The notes below the pieces were generated by a model that made no database searches, had not been told where the DNA came from, and saw only the letters and a list, made by a program, of their open reading frames with translations. 64,000 bases of DNA, taken from positions 620,001-684,000 of the forward strand of contig JABVCE010000021.1 in assembly GCA_014905635.1 (NCBI GenBank). Direction: 5' to 3'. Positions 1,428 through 63,694 of this stretch are shown one piece after another. The stretch is from Scenedesmus sp. PABB004 (taxonomy: Eukaryota). Numbering within the stretch: the stretch's first letter is position 1; each line of letters opens with the position of its first letter. Both the position numbers and the translations under genes were made by a program.

Positions 1428-3996
1428 ATGCTGCTGGCGCGTCGTGTGGGCGTGCCGGCCCGGGCGCAGCCGTCGGCCGCGCGGAGCTGGTGCGTGGACG
1501 CACGTCGAATGCGTGCCATGGCGCGCCCCGCCCGGCGCTACAGGCGCCGCAACGCCGCAACGCCACGTCCGATCGACACATGCGCCCGCCACGCCCTCGC
1601 AGGACGCCGCCCGCGCGCCAGCTCGTCGTGCTGAGAGCGAAAGGCGCGATGCCCGCTGCCGCCGCTGCCGCTGCTGCGGGCCGCGGCCCACGCCGCGCCC
1701 CGCCGCCCTCCCCGCAGGCGCCAACGGCGGTCGCCGCCGCAGCGCCTCGGCGAGCCGCAGTCCCGACGCCGACGAGCCCCCGCCGCCGGCGGTGCAGCTC
1801 GCGAACGCGGCGGCGGACCGCGCGGGCGCGGCCGACGCCACGCCGCCGCCGCCGCCGCCGGCGGTGCAGCTCGCCGACGCGGCGGCCGAGCAGCAGGCGC
1901 CCGGCGGCGGCGCAGGCCCCCCGCGCGCGCCGGCGGCGACCGGGGGCGCCGGCGCCGCGTCCACACCGGCAGACGTGGTGATCGGCGGCATCGCCTCCGC
2001 GGCAGAGGGCGTGGAGGGCGCCATCGCGCAGGGCGCGGAGGCCGCGCAGATCGGCATCGCGGGCGCGGCCGACCTCGCGACGCAGGGCGTCGCCGCCGCC
2101 GAGGCGGCGGCCGGCGACGCCGCGGCCGCGCTCAGCGCCGCGGCCGACGGCGCGGCGGCGGCGGCGGCGGCCGCGCTCGGCGGCGTCGCGGGCGCCGCGG
2201 AGGGCGCGGCGGCCGACACCGCGGCGGGCAACGGCAACGGCGCGGGCGCCGGCCCCGCCGCGGCGAGCGGGTCGTTTGACTCGGTCAACGTCCGCGTGCC
2301 GGCGAGCATGGCGTGGGCCAACGCCACGCCCGCCAAGGGCCGCGTGCGGGACATGACGCTGACGCAGGACTTTGACGAGGAGGAGGTGGAGGGGCTCAAG
2401 GTCAAGGTGGGTTGAGGGGCTGTCCTAAAACCCGCGTGGGCGCAGGCGGGGCGGCGAGCTCGTCACGGCGGCGGGCTGTGGCCCCTCGCGCCGCGGCCGC
2501 GCCCTCACGCCGCCGCCGCCGCCGCCGCCGCTGTCAGATCCTGGCGGCCGTCGCCTCCCTCGACCGCGGGCTCGCCGCCAACGTGCGCAGAAGGGGGAGG
2601 GGGCGGGGCAGTAGGGCGCCGAGCGCGCCGAGCGCGCCGCGCGGCGCCCTGCCGAGGCCGCTGCCCGGCCGCTCCGCCGATCGCTCGGGCACGTGACGGC
2701 GCGCCGCGCCGCCGGCCGCAGGTGCGCGAGGCGGGCGACGTGGACGCGCTGTGCCGGCAGCTCGAGGACGCGGCCGGGCCTGTGACGTTGAAGTGGGCGA
2801 CCAGCCGCAGCAGCCCCGACGCGTCGACGATGGACAGGCTCGCGGGTGAGCCAGGGGCCCCGGCCGGGCGCCGCCCGCGCCGCCCGCCGCGCGCGCCCGC
2901 CGCGCGCGCCCCGCGCGCGCGCGCCGCCGCGCGCCCACCCCACCACCGCCGGCGCCTGCACGCCTGTACGCCGCGGGGGGCGCCAGGCACGTGGCGGCTC
3001 ATCTACTCGAGCGGCTTCAACGGCGGCAGCCTCGGCGGGCGCCGCCCCGGGCCGCCCGCGGGGCTGGTGCCGACGGTGCTGGGCCAGGTGTATCAGGTCA
3101 TCGACGCCGACAAGGTGGGCGCTGCCAGGGCTGTGATGGTGTTTTGTGTCTGCGTTTGTGTTGTGTGTTGCATCCAAGGGTGCCGCGCCGCCCGCGCCGC
3201 CGCCGCGCCAACTGCGCAGCCTGCCGACCGCGCCGACCGCCGCCCGCGCCGCCCGCCGCCACTGCGCGCCGCTGCGCGCCGCGGCGGACACACACGCGCG
3301 CGCGCAGATGCTGCTTGACAACGTGGTGGAGCTGCTCGCCGCGCTGGGCGCGCCGCGGCTGCCCTTCCTGCCGCCCCCCGAGCCGGCGCCGACGCCGGGG
3401 CTGCGGCTGTGTCTGCGCCACAGCTACGAGGTCGCGCAGCCCAACCGCGTGACGATCGTGTTCGAAAACACCAGCGCCCGCGCGATCGGCCCGGAGCTGC
3501 TGCAGGCGCGCTCGCGCGCACGGCGGGCCGCGCGCGGCAGGGGCGGCGGCGGGTCCCGGGTGGGGGGGGGGGGAGGGGGGGCGTCGGGCGGCGCGCGCCG
3601 GGTGCGCCGCGCTGCGCGCGCGCCGCCAAGGCCCCTCCGCTGCCGCCGCCGCCGCCGCAGGGCCTGCCGGAGTTTGCGGTGCCGGAGCTGCCAGACTTCC
3701 TCAAGCCGCCCAAGAGCTTCAGGCGCGGGCCGCTCCCACGCCGGCTGCCGCGGCGCGCACGCACGCTCGTACGCTGCAGCGCAGCTCAGCGCCGCCGCGC
3801 CGCCGCCGCCACTGCCGCCGCCGCCGCGCCGCCGCCGTCGCCGCCGCCGCGCCGATGCGCGTCCAGGTCGGCCTCGTTTGATGTGACCTTCCTGGACGCG
3901 TCGATGCGCGTCACGCGCGGCGACCGCGGCGAGCTGCGCCTCTACCTGCGCGACGCGCCGCTCGGTCCCGCGGCCGCGCCCGAGTACGTCGACTGA
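1428..3996 (+). CDS. Plastid lipid-associated protein / fibrillin (PAP_fibrillin), 9 exons
   Basis: Spliced model 1428-1489, 1603-1643, 1718-2406, 2538-2582, 2722-2845, 2987-3114, 3308-3505, 3661-3722, 3867-3996. Motifs LDRGLAAN, GTWRLIYSS, LGQVYQVID, FDVTFLDASMRVTRGDRGELR; transit-peptide-like N-terminus. Confidence 0.85.
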
Positions 3997-4138
3997 CGCG
4001 GCGGCGGGCGACTGGGGGCTGAGCGCGCGGCGCGGCAGTTCTTGGGGGAAGTTGGAGAGTTGGTCGTCGCGGCGGTCGTGCGCGCCAAACCGCGCGTAAC
4101 GCGCTGCTGGCGCGACAGGCCCCCCGCCGCCCATGCTG

Positions 4139-4143
4139 TGTAA
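4139..4143 (+). promoter_or_regulatory. TGTAA polyadenylation signal (fibrillin gene)
   Basis: Chlorophyte UGUAA signal about 140 nt after the stop at 3996. Confidence 0.55.
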
Positions 4144-4258
4144 CACGGAACGCCTCGATCATTGCCCAGACGCGGCAGACGCGGCAGCAGACGGCGCGGC
4201 CGGACCGGCGGCGCTCGCCGCCGAGCGGCTCGACGAGCGGCGGCTGGCACACGCAGCG

Positions 4259-7200
4259 ATGTCGCTGCGGGCCGCGTTGGTGTCGGGGCGGTGCCCGTCA
4301 GCCGCTCGCTCGCTCCGTGCGCCGCTGGGCGCGCCGGCGCGGCTGCGGCGGCGTGCATGCGCCGGCGTGCTGCGGCGCGATCGCTCTGCGCAGCGCTGCG
4401 CGCCGCCGGAAGCGGTCAGTCGCGATGCTGGTGATGCCGAACTGTCGTACGTGCGGGTGCTGGCTGCGCTGCTGGCCGTCGCGCTGAGCATCGAGTCGTT
4501 GACGCCAACGTGGCCGCTGCTGCCCGCGGCGGCGGCGGCGGCGGAGGAGCAGCAGGCGCAGCAGGTGCAGCAGGAGCAGCAGGCGCAGCAGCAGGCGCAG
4601 CAGCCGCCAGGATCGCCCCACGTCGAGCCGGGCGCGCAGGACCAGCGGCAGTGGTGGACGGCCGACGCGGGCGCGTGGCTGGAGCTGGCGTCGCCGGCCG
4701 AGCTGACGGCCTTCATGTCCGCCACCCAGCCGGCGCCGGCCTGGCCGGCGCTGCCGCACGCCCCGCCGCGGCTGCGGCTGCTGGAGTTTTACGCGGGGTG
4801 GTGCCCCGCGTGCAGGGCGGCCGCGCCGGGCATGGCGGCCGCGGCGGCCGACCCGGCGCTGCGCGGCGCGTGCGTGTTTGCGCGCGCCAACGTTGACCGC
4901 GTGCGCCCCGCGCTCAAGGCCCTCGGCATCACCCGCATCCCTACCGTCCTGCTGCTCGGGCCCGACGGCGGCCTGCTCGACACGCTGCGCGCCGACGGCG
5001 CCGTCGTGCGCGAGGCCGTCGCGGCGCACGCGGGCGCGCTCGCCGGCGGCGCCGGCGCGGAGCAGCCCGCGGCGCCCGTGCCCCGCGGCGCGCTGCCGGC
5101 GCCGCCGGCCGGCGAGGAGCCCGCGCCGTCAGAGGTGGACGGCGCCGGCCCGGGCGGCGCCGCGTGCGGCATGGCGCCGGAGCCCGCCTGCGCCGGCCCG
5201 CCGCCCGCCGCGGCGCCCGCCGCTGGCGCCCCGGCCGCGGCCGGCCCTGGCCGCGACGGCGGTGCGAACGTGGCGGCGCTCGCGGCGGCCAAGGCCGCCT
5301 TCCTTGCTGCGCACGGCGGGGAGTACGGCTACGCCGGCTGGCTGGAGTCTCACTGGCAGGAGGAGGTCGGGGACCGCCTGGGGCCCGGGCACCACTACCT
5401 GGACGCCACGGGTGCGGCCGCGCCCTGCGTGCTGCGCCGGCAGCGCGGGCACGCTGCCGCGCGGCGCCCCGGCCACGCGCGCCGACCGCCCGCCCCGCCC
5501 GCCCCGCCCCGCCCCGCCCGCCCCGCCCCGCCCCGCCCCGCCCCGCCCCGCCCCGCCCCGCCCCGCCCCGCCCCGCCCCGCCCCGCCCCGCCCCGCCCCG
5601 CCCCGCCCCGCCCCGCCCCGCCCGCCCCGCCCCGCCCCGCCCCGCCCCGCCCCGCCCGCCCCGCCCCGCCCCGCCCCGCCCCGCCCCGCCCCGCCCCGCC
5701 CCGCCCGCCCCGCCCCGCCCCGCCCGACCAGGCGCCGCGCTCGTCCCCGCGTCGCTGCTGCGCGAGGCTTTTGCCGACCTGCTGGCCACGAGCTACGGCA
5801 ACCCGCACTCCCTCGGCGCGCCGCCGGGCGCGGCCGGGCGGGCGGCGCCGCCGGCGGCGCGGCGCCGCGCGTGACGCCCGCGGCGGCGAGCGAGGCGGCG
5901 CTGGGCGAGGCGGCGCTGGCGGTGATGGCGCACATGCGGGCCGACCCGGCAGCCTACGCTGTTGTGTTCACACGGTCAGCGTGCGCCACACACGCCTGAG
6001 GGAGGCGGGGTGCGGCAGCCGGGCCGGCGCGCGGTGCCCGCGCGCCGCCCGACGAGCACCCGCGCGCGCGCGCCGCCGCCGCCGCCGCGCAGGTCGGCCA
6101 CGGAGGCGCTGAAGCTCGTCGCCGAGCTCTTCCCCTGGTCGGCGGCGCCGCGCGGCGGGGACGGGGACGGCGGCGCGCCGCTGGCGGGGCGCGGCGCGGG
6201 CGCCGGCGCGGCCGGCCTGGACGCGGGCGGCGCGGGCGGCGCAGCGGCGGCCGCGCCCGGCGGCGGCAGCAAGTTCATCTATCTGCGAAGCAACCACAAC
6301 AGCGTGCTCGGCGTGGGCGCCGTCGCGGCCGCCGCGGGGGCGCAGCTGCTGCCCGTCAGCGAGGCGCAGATGGAGGCCTGGCTGCCTGCCGCGGCGGCGC
6401 CGCCGCCGCCGCCGGCGCAGGCCCTGCCCCGGCAGCAGCAGCCGGGCGGCGGCTGGCCGCTGCCCTGGCGGCGCGACCAGCAACGTGAGCAGCAGGCGCA
6501 GCAGGCGCAGCAGGCGCAGCAGCCGGTGCTGCACCTCGTCGCGTGGCCGGCGCAGGACAACTTTGCGGGCGTGATCTACCCGGCCGGCTGGGTCGAGCGG
6601 GTGCGGTGGGCGCAACGCTCCGCGCGGCGCGCTCCGCATGACGCGCCCGCCGCCGTGCCAGGCCCACCCGCCTGGCACGGCTGGCCGCCGGCGAGTCGCA
6701 GGTGCACGCCGCGTCGAGCGACACGGACCGTTACCTGACGCTGCTGGATGCCGCGGCGTTTGTGCCGACGCACCCGCTCGACCTCACCGCCCACCCGGCA
6801 GACTTTGTGGTTGTGAGCTTCTACAAGCAGTTCGGGTGAGCAGGGGGAGCAGCAGGACCGGCGGCAGGAGGCCTCCCCCCCCCCAGCGCGTGCGCGCGTC
6901 GGCGTGCGTTGCCCGGCTGCGGCTCACGCCAGCGCCGCCCCGCCGCCCGCCCGCAGCTACCCCACGGGCGTGGGCGCGCTCGTGCTGCGCACAGAGCTGG
7001 TGCCACTGCTCAAAAAGGCGCGGCTGCGGCCGCGGCGGCGGCTGGGCCTGGCCAGCGCGCCGCGCCGCGCGCCGTGCTCCGCGCTCCGTGCGCCTCGCCG
7101 CCGCGGCGCACGCCGCCCGCCCCCGCGCCGCCGCCCTGCCGCTCGTTCAGACCTACTTTGGCGGCGGCAGCGTCGCGCTCGCGACGCCCGAGGGCTGCTG

Positions 7201-7932
7201 GTCGGTCGCCAAGTGCGAGCCGTCGGCGGCGCTGAGCGACGGCAGCCCCAACTGGGCGGGCGCGGCGGCGCTGCTGGCAGCGTATCGCGGCTGGGACGCG
7301 CGCGGCGGCGCGGAGGTGCGGCGGGCCCCTGCGGGCGGGCAGAGCACCGCCGACGCCGCGCTGCCGGCGCCGCGCCGCCGACGCCGCCCCGCTGACCCCC
7401 GCCCGGCCCGGTGCAGGCGGTCGAGGCGCACACGCAGGCGCTCGCGGGCTGGACCTACGCGCAGCTGGCCGCGCTGCGCCACGCCAACGGCGCGCCGGTG
7501 CTGCGCCTCTACGGCAAGCACGCCGCGCAGTGGCCGGCCGGCGGCGCCGCCGCGCCGTCGGCGCCGCCGGTGCAGGGCGCGGTGTTCACGTTCACCGTCC
7601 TCTCGCCCGACGGCGCGCCGCTGCCGCACAGCGCCGTGTCGCGCGCCGCCGCGGCCGCGGGGCTGGACGTGCGCGCGGGCTGCGTGTGCAACCCCGGCGC
7701 GTGCCAGGACGCGCTCGGGCTCGCGCCCGACGAGGTGCGCGGCCTCGCCGGCCTCACACAGGGCTGCGGCGACGAGCTTGACTTCGTGACGGTAAGGCGC
7801 GACGCACCCGGCGGCGGCCGCGCCGTCGAGGTCGCGCTGCCGACCGGCGCCGTGCGCGCGTCGCTCGGCTGGGCGAGCACGTTTGAGGACGCGGCGGCGC
7901 TCGTGGAGTGGGTGCGCGGGTACGTCCAGTGA
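4259..7932 (+). CDS. Thioredoxin-like domain fused to molybdenum-cofactor-sulfurase-like PLP (aminotransferase class V) domain; no MOSC domain; apparent 1-nt frameshift near 5836-5842
   Basis: Exon 1 encodes LEFYAGWCPAC...GITRIPTVLL, then HYLDATG. Later exons encode YGNPHS, VFTRSATEALKLVAELFPW, NHNSVLG, LLDAA, SFYKQFGYPTGVGAL, YFGGG, RAGCVCNPGAC, GAVRASLGWASTFED. Introns 5412-5731, 5975-6092, 6601-6701, 6836-6956, 7018-7150, 7316-7416. Confidence 0.8.
5490..5725. repeat. (CCCCG)n microsatellite in intron
   Basis: Long, nearly pure pentamer run inside intron 5412-5731. Confidence 0.95.
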
Positions 7933-8189
7933 ACGACGCGCGTCGCCCGCGTCGCACGGCGTGGGCGGCCCGGCGGGCGGCAGCGGCGCAAGGCTCAAGG
8001 CGCGGCGGCGGCGCAGGGCTCAGCCGCCTGCTCGGGCAGGGCCTGCCGCCCGACCAGTGCACCGGCCGCCCGCGTTTGCGCACACGGACTGCCAGCGGCA
8101 GGAGCGGCTCTAGCAGCGCAGCGCCAGCGCTTCGCGGCGGCAGCAGCGCCCGCCCTTCCCCGCGCCCCTGCTCCGCGCGCCGGGCAATC

Positions 8190-8799
8190 ATGATCACCAG
8201 GCGGGCCTTCAGCCCCGCTAGGGCTGCTCCAGGTGCGCCGCGCGTTCGCCGGGGCCGCGCCAGCGTGGACACCGGTGGTCCATCTCAGCACCCGCGCGGC
8301 AGGCGGCCAGCGCCCGCGCGCGCGCGCCCCCTGATGCGCCGCTGCGATCTCGCCCCTGGACCGCCCTGGACCGACGCCCCGCTGCCCGCCGCGCACCCCG
8401 CCCCCACTCGCGCCAGGGCGCGCGGCCTGTGCCGTCCGAGGGCCGCCCAGGCGCGCGCCCAGGGCGCCCGGAGCGCTGCCCCACGCGGTGCCGGTCGCCG
8501 CCGGCGCCGACGCGGCGGCCCCGGACGCGGCGCTTGCGCGCCTGCTGCTCGCCCGCCTGGCAACGGCGACGCCGGGGCCCGGGGCGGCCGGCCCCGGCCG
8601 CGCCGCCGCGCCCGGCGCGGGCGCCGGCAGCGCGCGGCGCGCGTTCGCGGTGCTCGAGTCGACCGACGACGAGCGCGAAGCCGGGCGCCTCGCCGCGGCG
8701 GGCGCGCTCTGCCTGGTGACGTACAGCGAGGACGACGCTGGCGGCGCCGGCGGCGGCGCGGCCGACACGCTCTGCATCTGCTCCTACGACGACGAGTGA
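8190..8799 (+). CDS. Small hypothetical protein, probably plastid-targeted, 2 exons
   Basis: ATG at 8190; GT-AG intron 8233-8416 joins in frame to the ORF ending ALCLVTYSEDD...TLCICSYDDE*. Confidence 0.55.
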
Positions 8800-9677: not shown

Positions 9678-10792
9678 ATGGCGCAGCAGCAGCCGTCGGG
9701 CGCGGCGCCGGGCGCCGCCGGGGTCACCATCCCCGTGTTCAAGCACAAGGAGGACATGCGCGCCTTCTCCCGCGCTCAGAAGCGCGCGGGCAAGACCGTG
9801 GCGCTCGTGCCGACGATGGTGCGGGCGGCGGCGTGCGCGCCGCAGCGGTTGCCGCGCCCGCCGGCCGCCAACCGCCGCGCGCACCGCCGCCGCGCAGGGC
9901 TACCTCCACGCGGGCCACATCTCGCTGGTGGAGGCGGCCAAGTGCGCCCGGCCGCGCGTCGCCGCCGCGCGGCTCGCGCCGCGCCGCGCGCCGGGGCCGC
10001 GCGTGACGCGCGTGACGCGCCGCCGCGCAGGCAGCGCGCGGACGTGGTGGTCGCGTCGATCTACATCAACCCCACGCAGTTCAGCGCCAACGAGGACTTT
10101 GACGTCTACCCGCGCGACCCGGTGCGACACGACCGCTCGCAGGACAGCGACGACCGCTCGCAGGACAGCGCCGCACACTCGCAGGACAGCGCCGCGCGCT
10201 CGCATGACAGCGCCGCGCGCTCGCAGGACAGCGCCGCAAGCTCGCAGAACAGCGTCGCGCGCTCGCAGGACAGCGCCGCGCGCTCGCAGGACAGCGCCGC
10301 GCGCTCGCAGGACAGCGCCGCCTCGCAGGCCTCTCCGCGCCGGGCGGCAGCGGCGGCGGCGGCGGCGACGGGGGTGCTCGCCGCGCCACGGCTGCGCCGC
10401 GCCGCGCCGCGCCGCCGCAGGTCAGCGACCGGCAGCAGCTGCAGGCGGCGGGCTGCGCCGCGGTGTTTGAGCCGGAGGGCAGCCTCTATCACCAAGGTGC
10501 GCCGGCCCGGCCGCCCGCCGCGCTCCGCCCCCGTGTGCCGCGCGCGGGCGCTCCGCCCCCACGTGCCGCGCGCGGGCGGCCGTGCAGCCGAGCGGCCGAG
10601 CCGCCCCGGCGCCGCCGCCCCGGCCGCGCGCGCGCGCGCGCAGCGGGCGCCGCGGGCGACGCTGGCAACGTAGTCGGGCGGGAGAGCGGGCACCCGGACG
10701 CGCACGAGACGTGGGTGACGGTCGAGCGCCTGCAGCGCGGCCTCTGCGGCGACTCGCGGCCCCACTTCTTCCGCGGCGTCGCCACGGTGCGC

Positions 10793-10830
<38 letters not shown>

Positions 10831-11762
10831 ACCCGCACCCGCACCCGCACCCGCACCCGCACCCGCGCCGGCGCGCCGCCGGCCCGCCCGCCCGCCGCCG
10901 CGCCGTCGCCGCGCCCCGCGCCCCACGCCCGCCGCGCGCCCTCCCCTCCCTGCCCTCCCTGCGTGCCCTCCCCCGCCCCTGCCCGCGCTGGGCAGGTGGT
11001 GAGCAAGCTCTTTCACATCGTGGAGCCGGACGTGGCGGTGTTTGGGCGCAAGGACTACCAGCAGTGGCGCGTCATAACGCGTATGGTCCGCGACCTCGAC
11101 TTCCCGGTGGCCATCGTCGGCATGCCCATCGCGCGCGAGGCCGACGGCCTCGCGATGAGCAGGCGCGGCGGGGCGGGCGGGCGCGGCGGGCGGGCGGCGG
11201 GCGGGCGTGTGTGATGGGTGGGAATGGTGGGCGCGCGCGCGCGGCGGCGGGTGTGCTGACCGCGGCCGCCCCGCCCCGACCCCGCCCCGGCCCCGCCCCG
11301 CGCGCAGCCGCAACGCGCGGCTGTCCCCCGAGTCGCGGGCCGCCGCGCTCAGCATCAGCGCCGCGCTGCGCTGGGCCGCGGGTGCGGCCGCGGCGGGCGG
11401 CGCGGGCGCGGCCGCGCCGGCCATCGCGGCCGAGGTGCGCGCCCGCATCGCCGCGGCGGGCGGGCAGGTGGACTATGTCGAGGTGCGGCGCGCGGCGCGG
11501 CACGCGGGAGGGCGAGGCAGGCCTCGGGGCGTGCCGGGCGTGCGCGGCGCGCGGCCCCAGGCGCTGAGCCCGGCCGCCGCCGCCGCCGCCGCCGCCGCTC
11601 GTGCGCGCGCAGCTGCGGGACGCCGACAACCTCGCGCCCGTGGCCGACGCGGGCGCGCAGCCGACGCTGCTCGCGGTCGCGGCGCACTTCCCCGCGCGCG
11701 ACCGCGGCACGGTGCGCCTGATCGACAACGCCGTGCTGGGCGGCGGCGACGAGGACGCGTGA
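9678..11762 (+). CDS. panC: Pantoate--beta-alanine ligase (pantothenate synthetase), 8 exons
   Basis: [67 protein letters not shown] assembled across 7 introns. Confidence 0.95.
10133..10329. repeat. 21-bp minisatellite (CGCTCGCAGGACAGCGCCGCG), about 9 copies, in panC intron
   Basis: Tandem copies visible inside intron 10122-10420. Confidence 0.95.
10797..10870. repeat. (GCRCCC)n hexamer repeat in panC intron
   Basis: Direct observation. Confidence 0.9.
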
Positions 11763-15937: not shown

Positions 15938-15999
15938 GAGGGATGGATTGGGGAGGCCGCGGGGGGCGCGGACCAATCACGGCGCTGAGAGCCCGCCGC

Positions 16000-18383: not shown

Positions 18384-21512
<3,129 letters not shown>

Positions 21513-39502: not shown

Positions 39503-44603
<5,101 letters not shown>

Positions 44604-46710: not shown

Positions 46711-46803
46711 GCGCCGCCGCCCGCGGCAGCAGCGGCAGCGGCGGCGGCCGCGCCGTCGCGGCCGCGCCGGTGCGCCGGCGGGCGCCGCGAGCGTGCCGGC
46801 GCC

Positions 46804-47486: not shown

Positions 47487-48735
47487 ATGCGGTGCCTGCG
47501 GGGCGCGCACGCGCCGCCCGCGACCGCCCAGCGGCCCTGGGCGCCGCGGCCGCTGGCTGGGGCGCGGCCCCGGCCCGCGGTGCGCTGCCGGTCGGCGCCC
47601 ACGCCCCACTTCCCGGCCTCGAGCGAGCCCGCCGTCGTGAAGGCGCCAGGCCCGGCCCCGCCCGCCGCGCCCGGCGTGACCGACTACATCGCTGGCCCCT
47701 ACGGCAGCGGCCGCCTGGCCGACAGCAGCACGGAGGGTGCGGGGGCGGCAACCCTAGCGGGCGCCGCGCCGTCCGCTGCGCCGCCGCGCGCGCCCGATCG
47801 CCTGATCGGCGATCGCCCGCCGGCCCGCGCCGCAGAGGACGAGGACGTGCTGGAGGTGCCCACGCTGCGCCACCTGCTGGAGCCCAGGCACGGCCGCGCC
47901 GCGCGGCGCGGCGCGAGCGCCGGCGCAGCCGGCAGGCGGCGCGGCCGCCGATCTCGCCGCCCCGCGCCCCTCCCGCAGGCCCAGCCCCTTTGCGCTGGAC
48001 AACAACTCGGGCGGCGGCTTTGTGGGCGACCGCGACAAGATCCGGCTGCACACTGTGGAGTTTGAGTCGACCGAGTCGTCGGGTGCGCCGGCGGCGCCGG
48101 CGGCGGCGGCGGCGGCGGCGCTCGCAGGAGGCGCTCCTCGCAGGAGGCGCCGCGCCGCGCCGCGCCGCGCCGCGCCGCACCGCCCGCCGTGCGCGGCCCA
48201 CGGCCTGCTCGCCGCGCGCCGCCGCGCGCAGGCGCGACGTGCGCGACGGGCGAGAACAACACGTTTGACGAGGACACCTGCCTCGTGCTGCCGGAGTGGT
48301 CCATCCGCTCGGGGCCGCGCAAGACGATCTACTTCAACCCAGAGACGGTGCGCCGCCGGCGGCGGGCGGGGCTTGCAGGGCCTGCACAGCCCCCACCACG
48401 CGCCGCGCCGGCGGCGCCGCGCCCAGCCCCGGCGGCGCCCGCGCCTCGCGCGCCCGCGCCTCACGTGCTGCGCGCCTCACGCGCCCACGCGCAGGTCACG
48501 GCGGCGATCGTGACGTGCGGCGGGCTGTGCCCGGGGCTGAACGACGTGGTGCAGAACATCGTGTTCACGCTCACCGACTATGGCGTCCCCGAGGACCAGA
48601 TCCTGGGGATCCGCTACGGCCTGCGCGGCTTCTACGAGCGCGAGGACAAGCCCGTCACGCTCACGCGCCGCTGCGTCGACGGCATCCACCTCAAGGGCGG
48701 CACCATGCTGGTGCGCGGCGGGGGGCGGGCGCGGC

Positions 48736-48771
<36 letters not shown>

Positions 48772-50482
48772 CGCGCGCCGCGGCGGCGCGGCGCTGAGCC
48801 GTTCCGTGTCGCAGGGCACGTCGCGCGGCGGCGCCAACATCAAGGAGATTGTGCGCCGCATCGACCTGTGGGGCCTGGACATGGTATTTGTGGTCGGCGG
48901 CAACGGCGGCAACGCGGCGGCCAACGCGATCCAGCAGGAGGTCGAGCGCCAGGGCGTGCGCTGCGTCGTGGCGGGCGTGCCAAAGTCGATCGACAACGAC
49001 ATCCTGCTGGTGCGCCGCCTGTTGGGCGGGCGCGGGGAGGGATGGCGGGCGCCCGCCAGGGCTGTGCGGGGCGGGGCGGGGCGGGCGGGGCGGGGCGGGC
49101 GGCGCCGCGCCTGCTGGGCGTGCCCGCTGCGCCCGCTGCGCCCGCCGGCGGCGGCGCGCGCCCCCGGCGCGGCCCGAGCGCCCGCTGCGCCGCGCGCCCC
49201 GCGCCGCGCGCGGCCAGGTGGACAAGTGCTTTGGCTTTGACACCGCGGTCGAGGAGGCGCAGCGCGCGCTGCTGGCGGCCAAGGTCGAGGCGAGCAGCGG
49301 CTACAAGGGCCTGGGCATTGTCAAGCTCATGGGCCGCAGCAGCGGCTTCATCGCGATGCAGGCGTCCATGGCCTCGGGTGCGCGGCGCGCCGCGCCGCGC
49401 GCGCGACCGCGCCCGTCGCCTGCGCACGGCCGCGGCGGGCAGGCCCGGGCAGGCCCCGGCGGCGCGCGCGTGCGGCGCGGCAGCCGGCGGCGCGCTTGAC
49501 CGCGCCCGCCCGTGCGCCGCCGGCGGCCAGGCGTGGTCGACGTGTGCCTCATCCCCGAGGTGCCCTTCAGCCTGGACAAGCTCAAGGAGCACGTGAAGAA
49601 CGTGCTCGACAAAAAGGGCCACGCCGTGCTCTGCGTCGCAGAAGGCGCCGGCCAGGTGCGCCCCCCGGCGCCTGGGGCCCCGCGCGCGAGCGCTGGCCAA
49701 GGGCGCCGCCCCGCGCGGGCGCCGGCCAGGGGCGCCGCGCGACGCCCGCGACCCGCCCGGGCCCGCCCGCCGCCGCCGCGCGCCGCGCGCCGCGCAGGAC
49801 ATCCTCGCCGCCGGCAGCTCCGCGACCGACGCGAGCGGCAACGCGATCCTCGCGGACGTGGGCACGTGGATGCGGGACGAGTTCAAGCGGCACTTCAAGG
49901 GCGAGGCGGACGTGAAGTACATCGACCCCTCCTACATCATCCGGTGAGCGGCGGCGGGGGGCGAGAGGCGGAGGCAGGGGAGAGGAGCGGTTTCGGGCGG
50001 ACGCGGGGCCGGCGGGGGCTGCTGCGCCCAGGGGCCCGCGCCGGGGCCCGCCTCTCCCGCGCCGCGCGCGCCGCGCCGCGCACTGCGCCCACCGCACGCA
50101 CGCACGCGCTCACGCGCGCGCGCGCACACACACGCCCGCCCAGGTCCATCCCCACGACCAGCAACGACCGCATCTACTGCAAGGTCCTGGGCCAGGGCGT
50201 GGTGCACGGCGCGTTTGCGGGCTACACCGGCTTCACCGTCGGCCTGGTCAACACGCACTACGTGTACCTGCCCATCCCGGTCATCATCCAGGCGCCGCGC
50301 AAGGTCAACCCCAAGGGCCGGCGGTGGAACAGGCGCGGCGCGCGCGCGCGCGGCGGCCGGCTGCGCGGCGGCAGAGGCGGCGGCAGAGGCGGCGACGGGG
50401 GCCTCGCCGCCCTCTGACACCACCACCCCCGCCCGCCCTCGCGCGCAGGCTCAAGACCGCCATCAACCAGCCCGACCTGTGA
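47487..50482 (+). CDS. PFK: ATP-dependent 6-phosphofructokinase, plastid type, 11 exons
   Basis: [68 protein letters not shown]. Confidence 0.96.
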
Positions 50483-54414: not shown

Positions 54415-54470
<56 letters not shown>

Positions 54471-55447: not shown

Positions 55448-56501
55448 ATGGCGCATGGGGGCGGAGAGGAGCCGCCGCCGCTGGACGCGCTCGCGGACGA
55501 GCTGCACGATGCGCTGGCGCCCGTGCTGCTCAGCCGACCCGCCAACCCCCTGCTCTTCCTCTGCGCGCAGTGCGTAGGGGAGAGAGCGCCCGCCGGCGCC
55601 GGCACAAGGCCGCAGAGCAGCCTGCCGGGGCGGCAAGCCAGCGCAGCTGGCGCGCGCCGACGCCCACCCCCTCGCCGGCTGCCGCCGCACGCCGCCCTGA
55701 CTCTCGCCCGCCCGCCGCAGCTTCCGTGACCGCGCCGGCGTGGGTGCCAGCTCCGTGAGCGCCGCGTATCGCACGCTGCGCCTCTGCGGCAGCGACGGGG
55801 CGCGCTGCGCGGCCAACGTGTGGGCGGCCTTCCAGGCGCTCGCTGAGCCGGACGGCAGCGTGCGGCCAGAGCCCTTCCTGCAGCTGCTGGGCATGCTGGC
55901 AGACGGCCTGCCGCCCGAGCTGCGCGCGAGCCTCATGCAGGCGCGGCGGGGGAGGGGGGGGGGCAACGCGGCGGGTGTGGGCCCGCCGCGTCGGCAGGCG
56001 CAGCCGGTCTGGTGCCGGCGCCGCCGGTCCGCACCGCGCCGCGCCGCGCTGGGCTGGCCAGCGCCGCGCGCCGCTGCCGAGGCGCAGGTGCTGGCGGACG
56101 TGGCACGCCTGCCGCCCAGCTGGCCGGTTTTTCACGACGCCGCCAAGGCGTGCCTGCTCCTGGGCGAGGTGGCGAGTACCGCTCCGGCGCGCGGCGGGCA
56201 CATGCTGCAGCTGCCGGAGGCCCGGCTGCTGCTGGAACTGCTGTTGCTGGAGCAGGAGTGGTGCGCTGATGCCCGGGGGCGTGGCGGCCCGCCAGCGCCT
56301 GGCCGCGCGCTGACGCTCGGCCCACGCCGCAGGCTGCTGGCGGCCGCGCAGCCGGTGCCGCCGGTGCAGCGCCTGCGCTCGGTGCAGCTGGCGCAGGGGG
56401 GCGGCGAGCAGGCGCCGCTGGACGTGAGGCTGCGCGCGGCGTGGGCGGCGCAGCGCGCGCAGCAGCTGGTCGAGGCGGCGGCGGCGCACTGCGCGGGCTG
56501 A
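55448..56501 (+). CDS. Tubulin polyglutamylase complex subunit 1-like protein
   Basis: LHDALAPVLLSRPANPLLFLCAHF (RIIa/Dpy30-like docking motif), AYRTLRL, NVWAAFQAL, VFHDAAKACLLLGE resemble TPGS1 as recalled. Introns 55570-55720, 55941-56087, 56261-56332. Confidence 0.6.
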
Positions 56502-56860
56502 GTGTCCGGGGAGGCAGGGGTGGACCGGTCGTCACGGGGGCGTCGCGGGGGCGCTCGCAAGCGGCGCACGCGGCCGCTGCGCCCGCGGGCTGGCTGGTGC
56601 GCGCAGCAGCGCGCCGCGGCGCCGGCGCAGCAGCGCAGCACCTCCGCGCCGCCGCCCTCGGGCTCCAGACGCTTGGTAAGAGCTCTGGCCGCGCCCGCTG
56701 GCCGCGGCGCGCGCTCGCCGCAGAGCAGGAGGCTGTAGCGCGTCATAAGCCGGCTGCCCAGCCCCTGGGGGCCACAGCCCCCACCCGGACTGCTACTCTC
56801 TTGCTCTCCTGCCCCCTTTGCGCCCTGCTCCCCCTCTGCTCTCAGGGCCCTCTGCTCGCC

Positions 56861-57858
56861 ATGGCCTCCCGCGCCCGTGCCTTCGCGCTGGCCGCGCTGG
56901 CCGCGCTCATTGTGCTCGCCTCCCTCGCCGTCGTCAGCGTGGACGTGCGCCTGGCCGCCACGCTCACGCGCGGCGCCGAGCTCGTCGCGCGCGCGCGCAT
57001 CCCCGCTGTCGCTTCCTTCGCCTGCAACGCCTACGCCTCCGCCGTGGCTGCCATGCCGAGCCTGACCACCCTGGCCGCCACGTCCACGCTGCCCCTCGCC
57101 ACCACGTCGCCCGTGGCGGTGCTGGCCCGCGGCGGCGCCGCGGCGACGCTGCTCATCGCCCTGCTCGCCCTGCTCGCCCTCATCCTCGCCCTGCTGGCGC
57201 AGCGCGCCCGCCTGGCCGCCGCCACCGCCCGCGCCGACGCCGCTGACCTGCGCGCCAACCTGGACGCCGCCGCGGCCGACGCCGCCCGCGCGGACGCCGC
57301 CGCGCTGCGCGCCGCGCTCGCCGCCGAGCGCACCGCCAGCTCGTGGGTGCGCCTCCTCGACGCCGAGTGCCTGACCGACGCCGAAAACAAGCGCGAGCGC
57401 GCCGCCGACGCGCCGTACGGCACGACCACCGTGGGGCGCGTCGTGCGGGCCGTCGAGGAGCTCCAGGCCGAGGTCGACGCCAACGCCGCCGAGCTCGCCG
57501 CCCTCAAGGCCGAGCTCGCGCGCCGCGACGCCACCGTGGAGCGCCAGGCCGCCGAGCTCGCCGCGCTCAACGCCAGCCTGGCGCGCTGCAACGCCGCGGG
57601 CGCGGAGCAGACCGCCGCGCTCGCGCGCGCGCGCACGCTGCTCGACATGCGCACCCACAAGGTGGAGCTGCTCGAGGGCATCCAGAAGACCATGGCCGAG
57701 GCCCTGCTCATGCGCGGCGAGGTCATCGCGGCCTACAAGGTGCGGCGCGCGCCGCGCGCGAACGCGCCGCGCGCCAGCGCCCGCTGCACGGCGCGCCAGG
57801 CTGGCGCGCCGGCCCGGCAGCGCCTCCGCCCGGCCGCGGCGCTGGGCGCCGCCTGACC

Positions 57859-57911
<53 letters not shown>

Positions 57912-58401
57912 TCAAACGTCGGCGCCCGCAGAAGCGCGCGCTCGTGCGCGACGCGGCGCCCGGGCACAGCGGCCCGGCCCAGCGCGGCGCCACGCCGCTG
58001 CCCATCCCGGCGGCGCCGCGCGCTCCCGCGCGCAAGCCGAGCGAGACGGCCGCACAGATGGCCGCGGCGAAGCTCAACAAGGTGCTGGACGACGCTGCCG
58101 CACAGGCCGACAGGCTGCGCGCCAACATCACCGCCACGCGCGTCGCCTACGAGGTGCGCGCCGTGCGGCCGGCGGCCGCTGCGCGTGGCCCGAGCCCCGC
58201 CCCGCTCCCCGGCCCGCGCTGCGCGGCCCTGACTGCCAGCGTCCGCCGCGCGCCGCCGCCGCCCCGCGCGCGTGCGCAGGGCGCGCGCAAGCCGGCCATC
58301 GCCAGGCCCGCCGCGCCCTGCGCCTCCACCGCCGCGCCCGACGCCCGCGACGCCGAGCCCGCCGCGGCCGCCGACAGCACGGCCTCGGCCTCGGACGGCG
58401 C

Positions 58402-58462
<61 letters not shown>

Positions 58463-58498
58463 TGCGCCCCCACCGCCGCGCCCGACGACATGGCGTAG
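56861..58498 (+). CDS. Hypothetical membrane-anchored coiled-coil protein, 3 exons
   Basis: Two hydrophobic segments and heptad-rich regions; phase-consistent introns 57740-57931 and 58154-58279. Confidence 0.65.
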
Positions 58499-58534
58499 GC
58501 GAGGCCTGTTTTTCAGTTCTGGCTCACTGCTGCT

Positions 58535-58795
58535 CCGCCTGCCGCGCCCTGCCTGCCATGTGTGCTTTGCCTCGTGCGCTCTGCCTGCTGCACTTTTGCT
58601 GCCGCGCTCTGCCTGCCATGCGTGTCGCGCCTGTTCTGCCGCGCCTTGCTGTGTGTTCTGCCTGCTGTGCTCTGCGTGCTGCGCGTGTCGTGCCTTTTTT
58701 GCCGCGCCCTGCCGCGCCCCGCCTTCCGCGCCCTGCCTGCCGCGCCCTGCCTGCCGCGCCCTGCCTGCCGCGCCCTACGTGCTTTGCCTGCTGCC
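58535..58795. repeat. Degenerate CTGCCGCGCCCTGC tandem repeat
   Basis: Multiple imperfect 14-mers, near-perfect at 58725-58776. Confidence 0.75.
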
Positions 58796-58796
58796 C

Positions 58797-59884
58797 ATGC
58801 TGAGCTCCTCAACACGAGCGCCCATGCCGCCAAGGGATGTGACGCGCGTCGGCGGCAAGAGACTCGGGCGGCGGGGGCCGCGCGCGCGCTGCGCGCGTGG
58901 CGCTGCGGCCGTCCCCTGGTTCACGCCCCCGCTGCCGCCGCCCCTGCCCGCAGGCTGCCTCTCGCCTCGCCGACCAACACCACGGCTGCTGCGCGTGCGA
59001 GCCCGCGTCCCGCCGCACGCAACGATTGGCGGCCGCTCTGCACCTGCACCTCCAACTGCTGACACCACCAAGGGGAGTGAGACGCGCGGGCGGCGGGGAC
59101 GCGGGCGGCGGCGCGCTGCGGAGGGGACGCGAGGCGCTGGCCACGCCAATGACCAACCTGAAGCGCGCACCGGGCTGGCGCGCGCGCTGCGCGCGCGGCG
59201 CTGCGGCCGTCCCCTGGTTCACGCCCCCGCTGCCGCCGCCCCTGCCCGCAGGCTGCCTTTCGCCTCGCCGACCAACACCACGACTGCTGCACGTGCGAGC
59301 CCGCGTCCCGCCGCACGCAACGATTGGCGGCTGATCTGCACCTCCAACTGCTGACACCGCCAAGGGTAGTGAGACGCGCGTGCGGCGGGCGACCGCCGCC
59401 GCCCTGCCGCCGCCCTGCCGCCGCCCTGCCGCCGCCCTGCTCACAGGCTGCCCCTCACCGGCATGACCAACCGCGACGGCGACCGCGACGGCGACCTCTG
59501 CCATCATCGGTCATCGCTCAACCATCAACCGCCACAATCATCGCTCAACCGGCAACCATCAACCGCCATCAATCATCGCTCAACCATCAACCGCCATCAA
59601 TCATCGCTCAACCGGCATCAGGCAACTGCCATCAGTCATCGCTCAACCGGCATCAGGCAACCGCCATCAGTCATCGCTCAACCGGCAACCGTCAACCGTC
59701 ATCGCTCGGGCATCTGTCAATGTTCAACAACTGCCAACCGTCAACCGTCAGCAGTCCCCCCCACCCCCGCCCCGCCCATTCCCACCCAACAACACTGCTC
59801 AGTCCCTTGCCCCCCCCCCCGCTCGCGCCGCTCTTCTCCGCCCTCGTTGGCAGCGTCCGCTGCCCAGAACGACGTGGACTTTGA
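58797..59884 (+). CDS. Putative orphan 4-exon gene with tandemly duplicated Cys/His exon (may be non-coding)
   Basis: Exons 58797-58838, 58954-59076, 59252-59368, 59447-59884 all join in phase 0 without stops. Confidence 0.35.
58880..59385. repeat. About 200-bp direct duplication (intron end + exon + donor units)
   Basis: 58882-59095 and 59180-59387 are near-identical. Confidence 0.9.
59503..59750. repeat. A/C-rich minisatellite, core TCATCGCTCAACC, about 7 copies
   Basis: Direct observation; composition differs sharply from the flanks. Confidence 0.9.
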
Positions 59885-60922
59885 TCCCCGGCGCCGGGGT
59901 ACGTCGGCGGGTGCCACGCAAGTGGTGCCCTCAAGTCCAAAGCCCGATCCGCCGCCCCCGAGTGGTCCGCGCGTGCTGCGTGCTGCATGTGGCGCGCGCG
60001 CTTCGCTGTCCGTGCATGTGATGCAACGGTCTGCTGCTGCATGGGCGTTGCACGTACGCTGTGTGTGCCGCGTGTGCTGCGTGTTGCACGCACGTGAATG
60101 AGCCCTGCCGCGCTCGACCCGCTCAACCGGCTGCCTGCACTACAACCACGGTGGGGTCGGGGCGCGCAGCGCGGGGCGCGGCTGCCCCCGCCGCCGCGCC
60201 TGCCTCTGCCCCGGCCGTGCAGGGCTGGCGTGCGTCTGGCGGGCGACGACGCGCGGACGACGCCACGCGGACTCCGCTTCGCGCACGACGCCACGCGGCC
60301 CACGCTGCTTGGACGACGCCAGCAATGCAGGAGCACGCGGCAGCAGGTGCGCGGGAGGGGCGGCTGCGCGCCCGGGCCGGCGGGGCCGCCATCGGTGCTG
60401 GCGGCGCCAGCGCTCGCCGCTTCATCACGCGCGCCTGCCTGACGCGCTGCCGGCCGCGCTGGTCGCAGGCTGCTGCCCTCTCTTGCGACGACGCCCCCAC
60501 ACCCGCCCACCGAGACGGCGTCGCCCCCTTGCGGCGGCCCGAGCGCACCCCACCGGTGAGCCGCGCATTGGCGAGCGCGCGGCGGCTGTGCCACAGCCCT
60601 GTCGAGCGCGCGGCCGTCGCGCCCCGCCCGCTGACACTCCGCGCGCCGCCGCTGCCGCACCCGTCGTGCCCTCGCTGCCCTGCAGGGTGTCGCCTGATGC
60701 TGATCAAACCCTCACCCTTTCCTTTCCCTCTTGCACTCGCACTTGCACTTGCACCTTCCACCCTTGCACCCCCCAAACCCCAAAAGTCTTGAATGCACCC
60801 CGGCGACAATGATGTCTAGGCCGCACAACAGCTCCCCAGCGCGCACACCCCTAAGACGCGCCACGGGGAGCACCGTGGTCATGGCCTGGTCGGCGTCCCG
60901 GGGAGGGCGTCAAGCACCCCCC

Positions 60923-60979
60923 GCTCCGGGGCCGGTCGCCGCCCCCTCTCGGGCCGAGGTTTGACCCCTCGCCGGAGCT
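60923..60979 (+). ncRNA. tRNA-like (mascRNA-architecture) mini-cloverleaf
   Basis: 7-bp acceptor GCTCCGG/CCGGAGC; 3-bp stem with 5-nt GG-containing loop; 4-bp stem-loop; 5-bp T-stem with 7-nt TTTGACC loop. Confidence 0.5.
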
Positions 60980-61140
60980 TGTTCATGCTTTGTTGGCTGC
61001 CGTGCGAGCGCGCGCGCTGCGTGCGCGTGCTGCCGGCGTGCTGTGCGCGCTGCGGTGTACGTGCGCGCTGGCCGGCCCTCGCACACGCGCGCCAGCAGCC
61101 AGCAGCGCTCTCGGCAGCAGCACCCCAGCAGCAGAGCCAG

Positions 61141-61145
61141 TTACA
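61141..61145 (-). promoter_or_regulatory. TGTAA polyadenylation signal (LON-N gene)
   Basis: About 50 nt after the minus-strand stop at 61194. Confidence 0.6.
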
Positions 61146-61193
61146 GTGGCCGCCGCAGCGGTGACAGACGGCGGGCTCGGGCCCCGCCGGCCC

Positions 61194-63694
61194 TCACGCC
61201 CGCCCGTCCCCCACATCTTTGACAGCCACCACGGCGGCGAGCACGCGCACGTGCTTGCGCAGCACCGCCGCGATAAAGCGCAGCCGCGACGCGACGCTGG
61301 CCGCCTCCAGCACCACCTGCCGCGCCTCGCCCTTGTCCTGCTGCTCGAGCGCCGCGACGACGACGGCGCCGGCCCAAGACAGCCGGGCGGCGCGCCGCAG
61401 CGGGGGCCAGAGCGGGTCGGCGTGCACGTCGAGCCCGTCTGACGCGGCAAAGGCATAGCTCGACCCCAAGCGCTGCGGCGGAGGCGGGCCGCCCGGCCGC
61501 GCGTCGGCGCTGCCCGCCGGCCGGCTGCCTGCGGCCTCGCTGCCGTCGCTGCTGCTGCTGCTGCTGCCGCCGCCGTCGCTGCTGCCGCCGCCGTCGCTGC
61601 TGCCGCTGCTCCTGCTGCTGCTGCTGCTCCCGCTGCTGCTGCCGCCGCTGTCCGCTCGATCGCGGTCGGCGGGGCCAGGCTGCTCCGCGTCGCTGCCGCT
61701 CGTGCCGACCGCGCTCAGCGGCGCCGCCGCGCCGCCGAGGCCCCAGCCGGCACCGCCGGCGCCGGCTGCGAGGCCTGGCTGCACCGGCGGCGGGCGCAGC
61801 TGCAGCAGTCCAAACGGCAGGGCGTGCCGCTGGCCCTTGACCCGGCTGGCCAGCGCGACCAGCGTGTCCAGCTGCGCCCACACCTCGGCCTCCAGCATGA
61901 GCACGTCTACCAGGCTGCTGCTGGCGGCGGTGCCGGCAGTCAGCTCCGCGAGCTCTGGCCCCTGCGCCCGCACGCGGTGGCGGCGGCGGCGGCGGCGGCG
62001 GTGCTCGCGCGGGCGGGCGTGGCGCGGCGCGGTGCGCCGCAGCGAAGGCGGCGCGCTGCCCGTCGAGCCCCCGCCCACGGCCGCAGCGCGCGCACCTGCA
62101 GCGCCACGCCACGCTCTGCTGCTGTGTTCAGGCTGACGATGCCATCATCATCCACCTCGCCCCAGCCGGCCAGCGCCGAGGGGGCGCCGCCGCCGCCGCC
62201 GCCCGGGCCCCCTGCAGCGCGCGCGCTGGCGCTGCCGCCGCCAGCGCGGCCGCCTCTGCCGCTTCCGCCGCCGCCGCGCCGTCGGACAGGCCCTGCCGCC
62301 CGGCGACGACGCCGTCTGGCAGCGGCAGCACCTGCGGGCGGCGCGGGCGGCGCGGGCGGCGCGGGCGGCGCGCGTCGGCCGCCGCCGTGGCGGCGCGCGG
62401 GGCGCCGGCGCCCCCGCGCGCGCACCTCCGACACGCCGTGGGCCGCGAGCTCCTGGACGAGCAGGTGGGTCTCCAGGTCACTCTCGCCCTCGCGCGGCCC
62501 CGGGCCCGGCCAGGCCTGCTGCTCCGCGACGCGCAGCTCAAAGCCGCGCAGCCACGCCCAGCTCGCGGCGGCGGCGGCCTCGCGCGCGGCCGCGCTGCCG
62601 GCGGCCATCAGGGCAGGGATGCCCGAGTCGCCCGGCGCCGCCTGCATGACCGCGGCCATCGCGCGCGGCTGCACCGCCTCCAGCGCCTCGACGTCTTGCA
62701 GCAGCTCCACGTCGGCCGCGCTCCACGGCAGCTCCTGCACGCAGCGCGTCACCTGCGGCGGCGCGGCGCGCGCTGGCTTAGTCGGCCGCGCCGCGCGGGC
62801 GCAGCGCCGCCCTGCGAGCGCGGGCGCGCTCGCCTTGAAGCGCGCCACGGCGGTCGCCAGCACGAGCAGCTTGCCGTCCCGCAGCCGCGCCGCGCGGGTG
62901 ACCTGCGCCAGCGGCGGCGGCAGCCGCGGCGGTCGCAGCCGCGCCGCGCTGCGCTCGCAGGGGCCGGCCGGCCGGGCGGCCGCCCCGCGCCGGGCGCCGC
63001 GGCGCCGCGGCACCGTCGCCCGCACCTGCACCAGCACGCCGATGAGGGGCGCGCGGGAGCCGCTGACGAGGCGGTGCTGCGGCGACCCCAGGCTCCTGCT
63101 GCCGCCCGGCAGGTACAGGTGCCCGAACAGCCACGGCCGGCCGGCGCTGAAGATGGTCTCAAACATGTGCACGTAGTGGGGCGCCATGACGTGAAGAAAC
63201 TCCTGCGCGTCCCCCCCGACGACGAGGTCGCGCCGCCGGCGCGCGCCGCGGGCCGCTGCGCGCGCCGGGGGCCGCTGCCGGCCGGCGGCCGTCCCACCGC
63301 TGCGCCGGCCCCGCACCTGCATGCACGGCAGCACCGCCCACTCGGTGCGCCAGAGCGGCAGGCGCTCGATGCGCGTGCCGCCCGGCGGCGCGCGAGTGCC
63401 GCTGCCACGCGTCGCGGCCGCCGGCTCGCCGCCAGCGTTCTTGAAGAAAAGCTGTGTTAGCCGCCTGGCTTGGTCCCGCAGCGCCTCCGCGCCGTTGTCG
63501 TGCTCGCCGGGCTCGCCGGCGGGCTCGCCGCGGGCCGCGGGCGCGCGCGAGCAGCGCCGCCGCGCCGCGGCGCGCCCCAGCGCGCCGGGCGCCCTGGCCG
63601 CCCTGGCGCGCCCGGGAGCCAGCAGCAGCGGAGCCGCTCGACCGCCGCTGGCGGGCGCCAGCGCGGCGCGCGGAACGGCCCCAGGGCCGCACAT
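61194..63694 (-). CDS. LON peptidase N-terminal (PUA-like) domain protein, likely plastid, multi-exon
   Basis: LPLWRTEWAVLP, LHVMAPHYVHMFE, IGVLVQV, DGKLLVLATAVARFKV, PWSAADVELLQD and C-terminal RQVVLEAASVASRLR. Start codon uncertain. Confidence 0.75.

Follow-up and report, generated by a model that had tools for sequence, protein, structure and literature searches.

The window analysed here, 64,000 nucleotides (nt) of contig JABVCE010000021.1 from Scenedesmus sp. PABB004 (assembly GCA_014905635.1, positions 620,001 to 684,000), carries a set of nuclear genes in which 19 introns appear to begin with GC rather than GT. Exon-by-exon Pfam matches identified ordinary eukaryotic nuclear genes, namely those for pantoate-beta-alanine ligase, COX11, diaminopimelate decarboxylase, a protein kinase, the proteasome subunit RPN3, a ShK plus aldo-keto reductase protein, a double GST_N_3/glutaredoxin-like protein, PEX11, a FAN/BEACH-WD40 protein, PCMT, phosphofructokinase (PFK), NPL-FKBP, TFIIF-beta, CTU2, fibrillin, and a thioredoxin plus class V aminotransferase protein. 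The closest named proteins come from Sphaeropleales (Monoraphidium, Chromochloris, Tetradesmus and Scenedesmus), and the Tetradesmus obliquus locus tags of four orthologues lie near one another, which indicates synteny with the window. Its proteins place the window in the nuclear genome of a scenedesmacean green alga with very high G+C, from the Scenedesmus/Tetradesmus group.

The guanine plus cytosine (G+C) content is 77-81% throughout the window and about 80% overall. Three-base periodicity is very strong, with one codon position (GC3) at 0.95-1.00 over long coding stretches. Across all introns modelled in the window, G+C is 0.88-0.89 and exceeds that of the exons, and the tract before the acceptor is rich in C (0.57 C versus 0.05 T, about 10:1, in the last 20 intron bases before AG). 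GC-rich introns with a C-rich tract are the opposite of the usual AT-rich introns with a U tract.

A sequence-only reading of the window had listed 19 GC donors, all of the form MAG^GCRMG (the caret marks the exon-intron border), as required by protein continuity. All 19 positions do read (C/A)AG^GC(G/A)(C/A)G on the strand given. Twelve of the junctions were verified by homology, three have moderate support (1644, 18919 and 36378), and four come from our gene model only (30441, 31299, 55941 and 62833). The introns are as follows, with the cost of removing a site, where given, being its cost to the gene model.

1644 to 1717 (74 nt), plus strand: fibrillin GC-AG intron after the second small exon, aag^GCGCGA; moderate; unused by the gene model.
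3506 to 3660, plus strand: fibrillin (PAP) GC-AG intron; verified; gapless against P0124 (Tetradesmus obliquus fibrillin).
3723 to 3866, plus strand: fibrillin GC-AG intron; verified; gapless against P0124; removal costs 9.3 nats.
7018 to 7150, plus strand: thioredoxin plus class V aminotransferase GC-AG intron; verified; LVPLLKK^TYFGGGS gapless against P0144-P0146 (Tetradesmus/Scenedesmus).
11163 to 11307, plus strand: pantoate-beta-alanine ligase GC-AG intron; verified; Pantoate_ligase positions 180 and 182 on its two sides, one split codon.
17221 to 17316, minus strand: COX11 GC-AG intron; verified; CtaG_Cox11 positions 55 and 57 on its two sides, one split codon.
18919 to 19030, plus strand: diaminopimelate decarboxylase GC-AG intron; moderate; removal costs 4.4 nats.
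29286 to 29417, plus strand: proteasome subunit RPN3 GC-AG intron; verified with PDB chain 6epc_S.
30441 to 30531, plus strand: GC-AG intron of g07, a gene of no assigned family; model only; frame change across 91 nt.
31299 to 31393, plus strand: second GC-AG intron of g07; model only; frame change across 95 nt.
32560 to 32667, minus strand: ShK plus aldo-keto reductase GC-AG intron; verified, the weakest of the twelve.
36378 to 36530, plus strand: double GST_N_3/glutaredoxin-like GC-AG intron; moderate.
37193 to 37313, plus strand: GC-AG intron in the second domain of the double GST_N_3 gene; verified; GST_N_3 position 43, three residues, then 47.
41668 to 41832, minus strand: FAN/BEACH-WD40 GC-AG intron; verified; Beach profile positions 243 and 250, six residues between.
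41981 to 42090, minus strand: FAN/BEACH-WD40 GC-AG intron; verified; Beach profile positions 194 and 197, two residues between.
47888 to 47978, plus strand: PFK GC-AG intron; verified; gapless against green-algal PFKs; spliced model identical to P0158.
50333 to 50448, plus strand: PFK GC-AG intron; verified; junction residues invariant in 12 homologues; matches P0158.
55941 to 56087, plus strand: GC-AG intron, part of g17, a gene of no assigned family; model only; removal costs 8.2 nats.
62753 to 62833, minus strand: g18 GC-AG intron; model only; removal costs 7.0 nats; intron-like composition.

An independent gene model was built with a two-strand dynamic-programming gene finder (own scripts) that combined codon log-odds with donor and acceptor matrices trained on the window and carried an explicit prior for GC donors, re-estimated iteratively from 0.01, 0.1 or 0.5. 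Flat site scores overcalled GC donors (62 of 113 introns), as expected in DNA of 80% G+C; with the trained matrices, all three starting priors converged to 29-33 GC donors among 128-132 introns. From any starting prior the model used 18 of the 19 claimed donors, missing only the one at 1644, and it still used 18 when the GT matrix was applied to GC donors and their prior was fixed at 1%. Deletion of a single claimed site cost 1.6-10.7 nats, and a parse restricted to GT contained 102 introns. In competition with decoy dinucleotides, GC was chosen 30 times, GG never and GA twice; in a second arrangement, GC was chosen 26 times versus 1-4 times for each of eight decoys. The 19 claimed donors stand among 126-128 model introns, where the sequence-only reading had counted roughly 110. 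We did not accept the 12 extra GC donors that the model proposed, seven of which lack an exonic AG and several of which open introns of 365-888 nt or lie at gene borders. The gene model is a guide, not proof, and because runs with a single decoy showed that it proves nothing alone, we turned to homology tests of the junctions.

Exons were submitted as separate pieces to a Pfam search that treated all 132 exons alike and did not choose them for GC. At 32 junctions the same family was matched on both sides, and at 26 of these the numbers of residues and profile positions agreed within two. This unbiased set comprises 21 GT and five GC junctions (11163, 17316, 37193, 41832 and 42090), a GC share of 19%, in agreement with the very high GC-AG usage that had been claimed. 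In the PFK gene, full-length homologues (12 green-algal PFKs retrieved with one PFK exon) aligned without gaps across all ten PFK junctions of the model, including those at 47888 and 50333. The public protein PFK5 of Scenedesmus sp. PABB004 (P0158) is identical to our spliced model over the whole PFK part, and a transcript-derived open reading frame (ORF) of Tetradesmus deserticola (P0006) is gapless over both GC junctions, with 91% identity over 432 aligned residues. Splicing from the GT at 50324 instead, 9 nt upstream of 50333, would cost the protein three residues, the invariant W-N among them; likewise, the GT alternative to 7018, at 7000, would remove six aligned residues (VPLLKK).

Two introns whose length is a multiple of three and which contain no stop, those of RPN3 and the aldo-keto reductase, were translated through and compared with PDB chains. 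In the RPN3 translation, the intron 29286-29417 appears as 44 extra residues inserted between residues 469 and 470 of 6epc_S. At 32667, 19 query residues face 18 residues of chain 3o3r_A after 36 intron codons are taken out. Homologues thus fix 12 of the 19 junctions with residue precision or close to it, and at the level of encoded proteins these are verified. These results establish that the GC donors are real splice junctions and that they occur at high frequency.

The three sites with moderate support differ in what speaks for them. The 5' end of the fibrillin gene could be rebuilt with an ATG at 1428, a GT intron at 1490-1602, an exon at 1603-1643 and the GC intron at 1644-1717; the rebuilt N-terminus has 35 residues ending in RAKG, and Tetradesmus P0153 has the same length and the same ending. 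The frames on both sides of 1644 demand an intron whose length is not divisible by three. In the diaminopimelate decarboxylase gene, the exon downstream of 18919 begins at residue 27 of chain 6n2a_A (the Arabidopsis enzyme) and at position 22-25 of TIGR01048, and the GT alternative at 18970 would add 17 residues; the short upstream (LysA) exon was undetectable in PDB, NCBIfam or Pfam searches. The exon downstream of 36378 begins at GST_N_3 position 13. Here, read-through of the intron gave 33.3 bits in two stretches versus 20.7 bits for the downstream exon alone, read-through against PDB gave chance matches only, and the GT alternative would delete the CPFC motif.

At the four remaining sites the gene model points to GC introns. 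Removal of 30441 costs 10.7 nats, and its in-phase GT alternatives score -3.0 and -7.2. Removal of 31299 costs 2.3 nats and is answered by another GC donor 15 nt downstream, which makes this exact donor the least certain of the set; no homologue of g07 was found among longer proteins. The putative intron at 55941 has intron-like composition and no codon periodicity. The exons flanking 55941 and those flanking 62833 have no Pfam match, and the searches turned up neither a family nor a homologue for any of the genes with these four sites.

The GC donors differ from the GT donors chiefly in the exon before them. The GT donor consensus in the window is G^GTGCG(C/G), and the GC donors follow the same consensus with C at +2. 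Among verified junctions, an exonic AG precedes 12 of 12 GC donors versus 12 of 32 GT donors (Fisher p = 0.00013), and A at -2 alone separates the two groups (p = 0.0005). Scored on the flanking positions, 14 of the 19 GC donors lie above the 70th percentile of GT donors. This supports the view that the GC donors depend on a strong exon end, with an enhanced consensus elsewhere in the donor. The two groups of introns are alike in length (p = 0.26), GC content and use of a GCAG acceptor (p = 0.76), and all 18 claimed introns used by the gene model end in CAG. The comparison of GT with GC donors that had been proposed alongside the sequence-only reading, carried out here for the window, thus gave one consensus with a stronger exon end in the GC set, and the statement that GC donors always follow an exonic AG while GT donors tolerate varied exon ends holds for the verified junctions.

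MAG^GCRMG is found 67 times when the two strands are counted together. On the sense strand, it lies only six times inside model exons and six times inside model introns, so within genes it is mostly a donor. Verified donors after an AG number 12 GC and 12 GT (five and nine in the unbiased Pfam set), and every verified donor with a weak exon end retains T, as do half to two thirds of those with an AG. Since T persists at weak ends despite the roughly 10:1 excess of C, selection for T would be strong at weak sites and moderate at strong ones. U12-type introns have a donor of the form /(A or G)TATCCTT and a TCCTTAAC-like branch site; with all 19 donors reading GC(G/A)(C/A)G, they were ruled out.

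The direction of change was approached through the intron at 3506. With the exon ending there as a query, we obtained ten short ORFs of relatives that run on into the intron, evidently called on genomic contigs. In all ten, V (a GTN codon) directly follows the exon-final Q, where the present genome has CAG^GCG, and the residues after V (N, F, Y, C) indicate less GC-rich introns. This is direct, if single, evidence from related sequences that a GT donor appears to have become GC in the present lineage. A metagenome scan with the PFK alignment yielded 80 loci of at most 61% identity, and the listed match spans suggest intronless, distant genes.

Taken together, the data make it quite probable that these are ordinary U2-type spliceosomal introns, with GC in place of GT in about 15-20% of the introns of the window, driven by GC pressure. 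Extreme G+C pressure, through mutation or gene conversion, would keep turning T at donor position +2 into C. Such a C would survive only at strong donors, with (C/A)AG before the border and G at +5 after it, where pairing with U1 small nuclear RNA (snRNA) and later with U6 may still suffice; elsewhere, selection would keep the T. That GC pressure converts the +2 T where the exon end is strong had been proposed from the sequence, and both the AG contrast and the GT donors of relatives at 3506 speak for it. We infer which way the substitution went across the genome and what caused it, and also that a standard spliceosome removes these introns.

Some features of the donors would also suit a change in the splicing machinery itself, in which a variant U1 snRNA 5' end, U1C, U6 or Prp8 accepts C at +2 and GC-AG introns form a second regular class. 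C occupies +4 in 75% of model donors and in 23 of 32 verified GT donors, and C at +4 does not pair with the standard U1 5' end. Moreover, GC is as common as GT among verified donors after an AG (12 versus 12; 5 versus 9 in the unbiased set). However, a strict need for an exonic AG is what standard U1 pairing predicts, and a fully accepted +2 C should also appear at weak exon ends, given the roughly 10-fold excess of C. We regard a changed machinery as unlikely. The window had no Rfam match at the gathering threshold or at E up to 1, and no snRNA lies in it. In its broadest and equally doubtful form, the spliceosome of the Scenedesmaceae lineage might have co-evolved with 80% G+C, so that a changed U1 5' end, U1C or U6 contact makes GCGCG and GTGCG (with C at +4) regular donors and introns of 89% G+C with C-rich tracts are recognised by intron definition. 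If true, the alga would be a natural experiment on the compositional limits of the spliceosome.

That the GC donors are instead an artefact of annotation, with GCGCG being common in DNA of 80% G+C and picked by chance while the true donors are nearby GT sites or the sequence is retained as coding, seems very improbable. The idea draws on the behaviour of the gene model, which absorbs single decoys and, after removal of a claimed site, often (11 of 18) falls back on a GC donor a few codons away; seven of the 18 modelled claimed introns have lengths that are multiples of three, and all seven are free of in-frame stops; and MAG^GCRMG, at 67 occurrences, is not rare. It conflicts with the twelve junctions set to the residue or nearly so by homologues and with the scarcity of the motif inside model exons on the sense strand. 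In addition, of the in-phase GT sites lying no more than 90 nt away, all but three fall short of the score that marks the 5th percentile of GT donors (-0.3). The exceptions are a site beside 55941, which scores -0.3; a site 54 nt beyond 3506, which homology contradicts; and a site 81 nt beyond 62833, where the next exon simply begins. Codon periodicity is absent from the putative introns (0.75-1.00 GC at each of the three positions), and their mean codon log-odds are -0.25 to -0.63 versus +0.2 to +0.9 in the flanking exons. Finally, no equivalent slide of the borders of the 18 modelled introns yields GT-AG or another canonical pair. T-to-C assembly errors, or an editing of C to U in the pre-mRNA by which GU is regained ahead of splicing, are hardly credible, since nineteen errors would have to hit donor position +2 exactly and only after an exonic AG, the same junctions follow from P0158, a public protein whose genome is identical or nearly so, and in Emiliania nine GC junctions are described as confirmed by reverse-transcription PCR (RT-PCR) and Sanger sequencing in the relevant passage of Feldmesser et al. 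(2014, BMC Genomics 15:148, PMC4028052).

Several points weigh against GC pressure acting on ordinary U2-type introns, or at least against its generality. Splicing is read here from the continuity of predicted proteins and not from RNA, four of the sites (30441, 31299, 55941 and 62833) are modelled introns resting on the gene model alone, the share of GC-AG introns comes from one 64-kb window, and the ancestral GT is seen at one intron, 3506. The gene model has errors (chaining of CTU2 to fibrillin, 5838-6092 and 6601-6695), and it adopted a single decoy dinucleotide, offered instead of GC, 16-39 times. The AG rule may be in part a matter of ascertainment: the exon before a possible GC intron of 53 nt (5838-5890) ends in CGG, and no AG stands before seven of the model's 12 extra GC calls.

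The modelling errors can be described more closely. At 1-1272, a CTU2-like gene stops at a TGA near 1270, which is followed by an A-run; the gene model wrongly joined it to the fibrillin gene via two tiny exons. In the gene at 4420-8799, the thioredoxin and class V aminotransferase parts (the latter a MOCOS-like NifS part) appear as a single gene, and the Tetradesmus obliquus protein P0145 (968 residues) likewise carries both Pfam domains. The extra GC donor that the model placed at 5838, with an intron to 6092, was rejected because it skips a real small exon at about 5891-5980 (...EAALGEAALAVMAHMRADPAAYAVVFTRSA) that aligns with Tetradesmus P0145. To include this exon, one must assume an assembly frameshift or else a 53-nt GC-AG intron at 5838-5890 whose exon end is not AG and whose acceptor is GAG; the intron that follows the exon, 5981-6092, begins GTGCGC. 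At 6601-6695, alignment with homologues indicates a 95-nt GT intron with a GAG acceptor; the gene model instead put a 56-nt intron at 6606-6661, adding about 13 residues. Most of another intron of this gene is occupied by a (CCCGC)n microsatellite of 48 copies (5489-5725).

Further along the window, a 21-nt tandem repeat (10134-10321; nine copies, 90% match) lies in frame within a predicted pantothenate synthetase exon, encodes ...DSAARSQ... repeats and has parts with Pfam matches on either side; either it is inserted coding sequence or it is an intron that went unrecognised. At 45423-50482, the public protein P0158 (836 residues) combines PCMT and PFK in one product, with 36 extra residues in PCMT, while our gene model has two genes, separated by a small minus-strand ORF (46807-47106); the fusion probably arose through a merge during annotation. 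Gene models are absent over the longest distance at 58500-61190. Over 56001-60000 the GC skew has a strongly negative value (-0.13), and a tandem repeat of 35/63 nt at 59511-59703 contains unusually much A and T for the window.

The sequence-only reading had also warned that default gene finders would mis-model these genes. This is partly borne out: the GT-only parse deletes the W-N of PFK and the VPLLKK of the aminotransferase. On the other hand, P0158 is identical to our model through both PFK GC junctions, which indicates that at least one annotation pipeline handled them. In this alga and in GC-rich algae related to it, GT-only predictors would delete or insert residues in conserved proteins such as PFK, pantothenate synthetase, COX11, RPN3 and the BEACH protein, and GC donors must therefore be enabled in predictors. 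The window also offers a compact case of mutation or gene-conversion bias set against selection at a single nucleotide, with GC at about a third to half of the donors after an AG and at none of the verified others.

GC-AG introns are not peculiar to this alga. Reportedly, as described by Burset et al. in 2000 and by Thanaraj and Clark in 2001, GC donors are compensated by a stronger consensus at other donor positions. The ordinary U2-type GC-AG introns of animals and plants, at about 1%, likewise have GC...AG termini and a stronger consensus elsewhere (here MAG^GC..G); in contrast, such introns are 15-20 times commoner here, and their consensus is GCGCG, after the alga's own GTGCG, and not GCAAGT. 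A norm of around 1% had been assumed, and the plant average of 1.2% in the relevant part of Pucker and Brockington (2018, BMC Genomics 19:980, PMC6310983) accords with it; as a general rule, however, it is overstated, since the figures compared below are far higher in GC-rich protists and raised in GC-rich green algae.

For major non-canonical introns (GC-AG plus AT-AC), supplementary table 6 of the same survey gives 173 of 2044 in Ostreococcus tauri, 8057 of 114347 in Micractinium conductrix, 7090 of 124435 in Chlorella sorokiniana and 496 of 8831 in Micromonas pusilla (PMC6310983). In that table, the shares of these four GC-rich green algae are 5.6-8.5%. They belong to the same kingdom and follow the same trend towards a raised share, but the share found here is two to three times the highest of theirs and, going by the tabulated values, above any in that 121-species plant survey. 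The sphaeroplealean Monoraphidium neglectum (64.7% G+C) is listed there with only 19 of 67746, a low count that may reflect GT-only prediction; annotations with almost no GC-AG introns, such as this one, deserve re-examination.

Closer in magnitude are the pelagophytes Aureococcus anophagefferens and Pelagomonas calceolata, for which the pertinent section of a preprint gives about 14-17% predicted GC-AG introns of 103-177 bp and attributes this share to high G+C, with 0.32% in the lower-GC Aureoumbra (bioRxiv 10.1101/2024.10.30.620910). The likeness lies in a similar share in GC-rich genomes, tied there as here to high G+C; the differences are that these are stramenopiles and that, as presented in that section, their shares are annotation predictions, whereas junctions here were checked against homologues. 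Emiliania huxleyi goes further, with 56-60% GC donors in a genome of 65% G+C, and the passages on GC donors ascribe them to genomic GC content and note that canonical-only predictors were misled (PMC4028052). As described in those passages, Emiliania resembles the present case as a GC-rich protist with a large share of GC donors, a retained AG acceptor and mispredicted canonical-only models. It differs in being a haptophyte of 65% G+C with some junctions verified by RT-PCR, compared with a green alga of 80% G+C and a share of about 15-20% derived from sequence in one window; the strict dependence on an exonic AG seen here is not stated in the passages on GC donors. A search of full-text papers found none on GC-AG use in Scenedesmaceae or Sphaeropleales. 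The introns of this window are a known kind of GC-pressure effect, involving no new mechanism, in a new and fairly extreme host, and they carry the link of genomic G+C with GC-AG use, described for haptophytes and pelagophytes, over to chlorophycean green algae.

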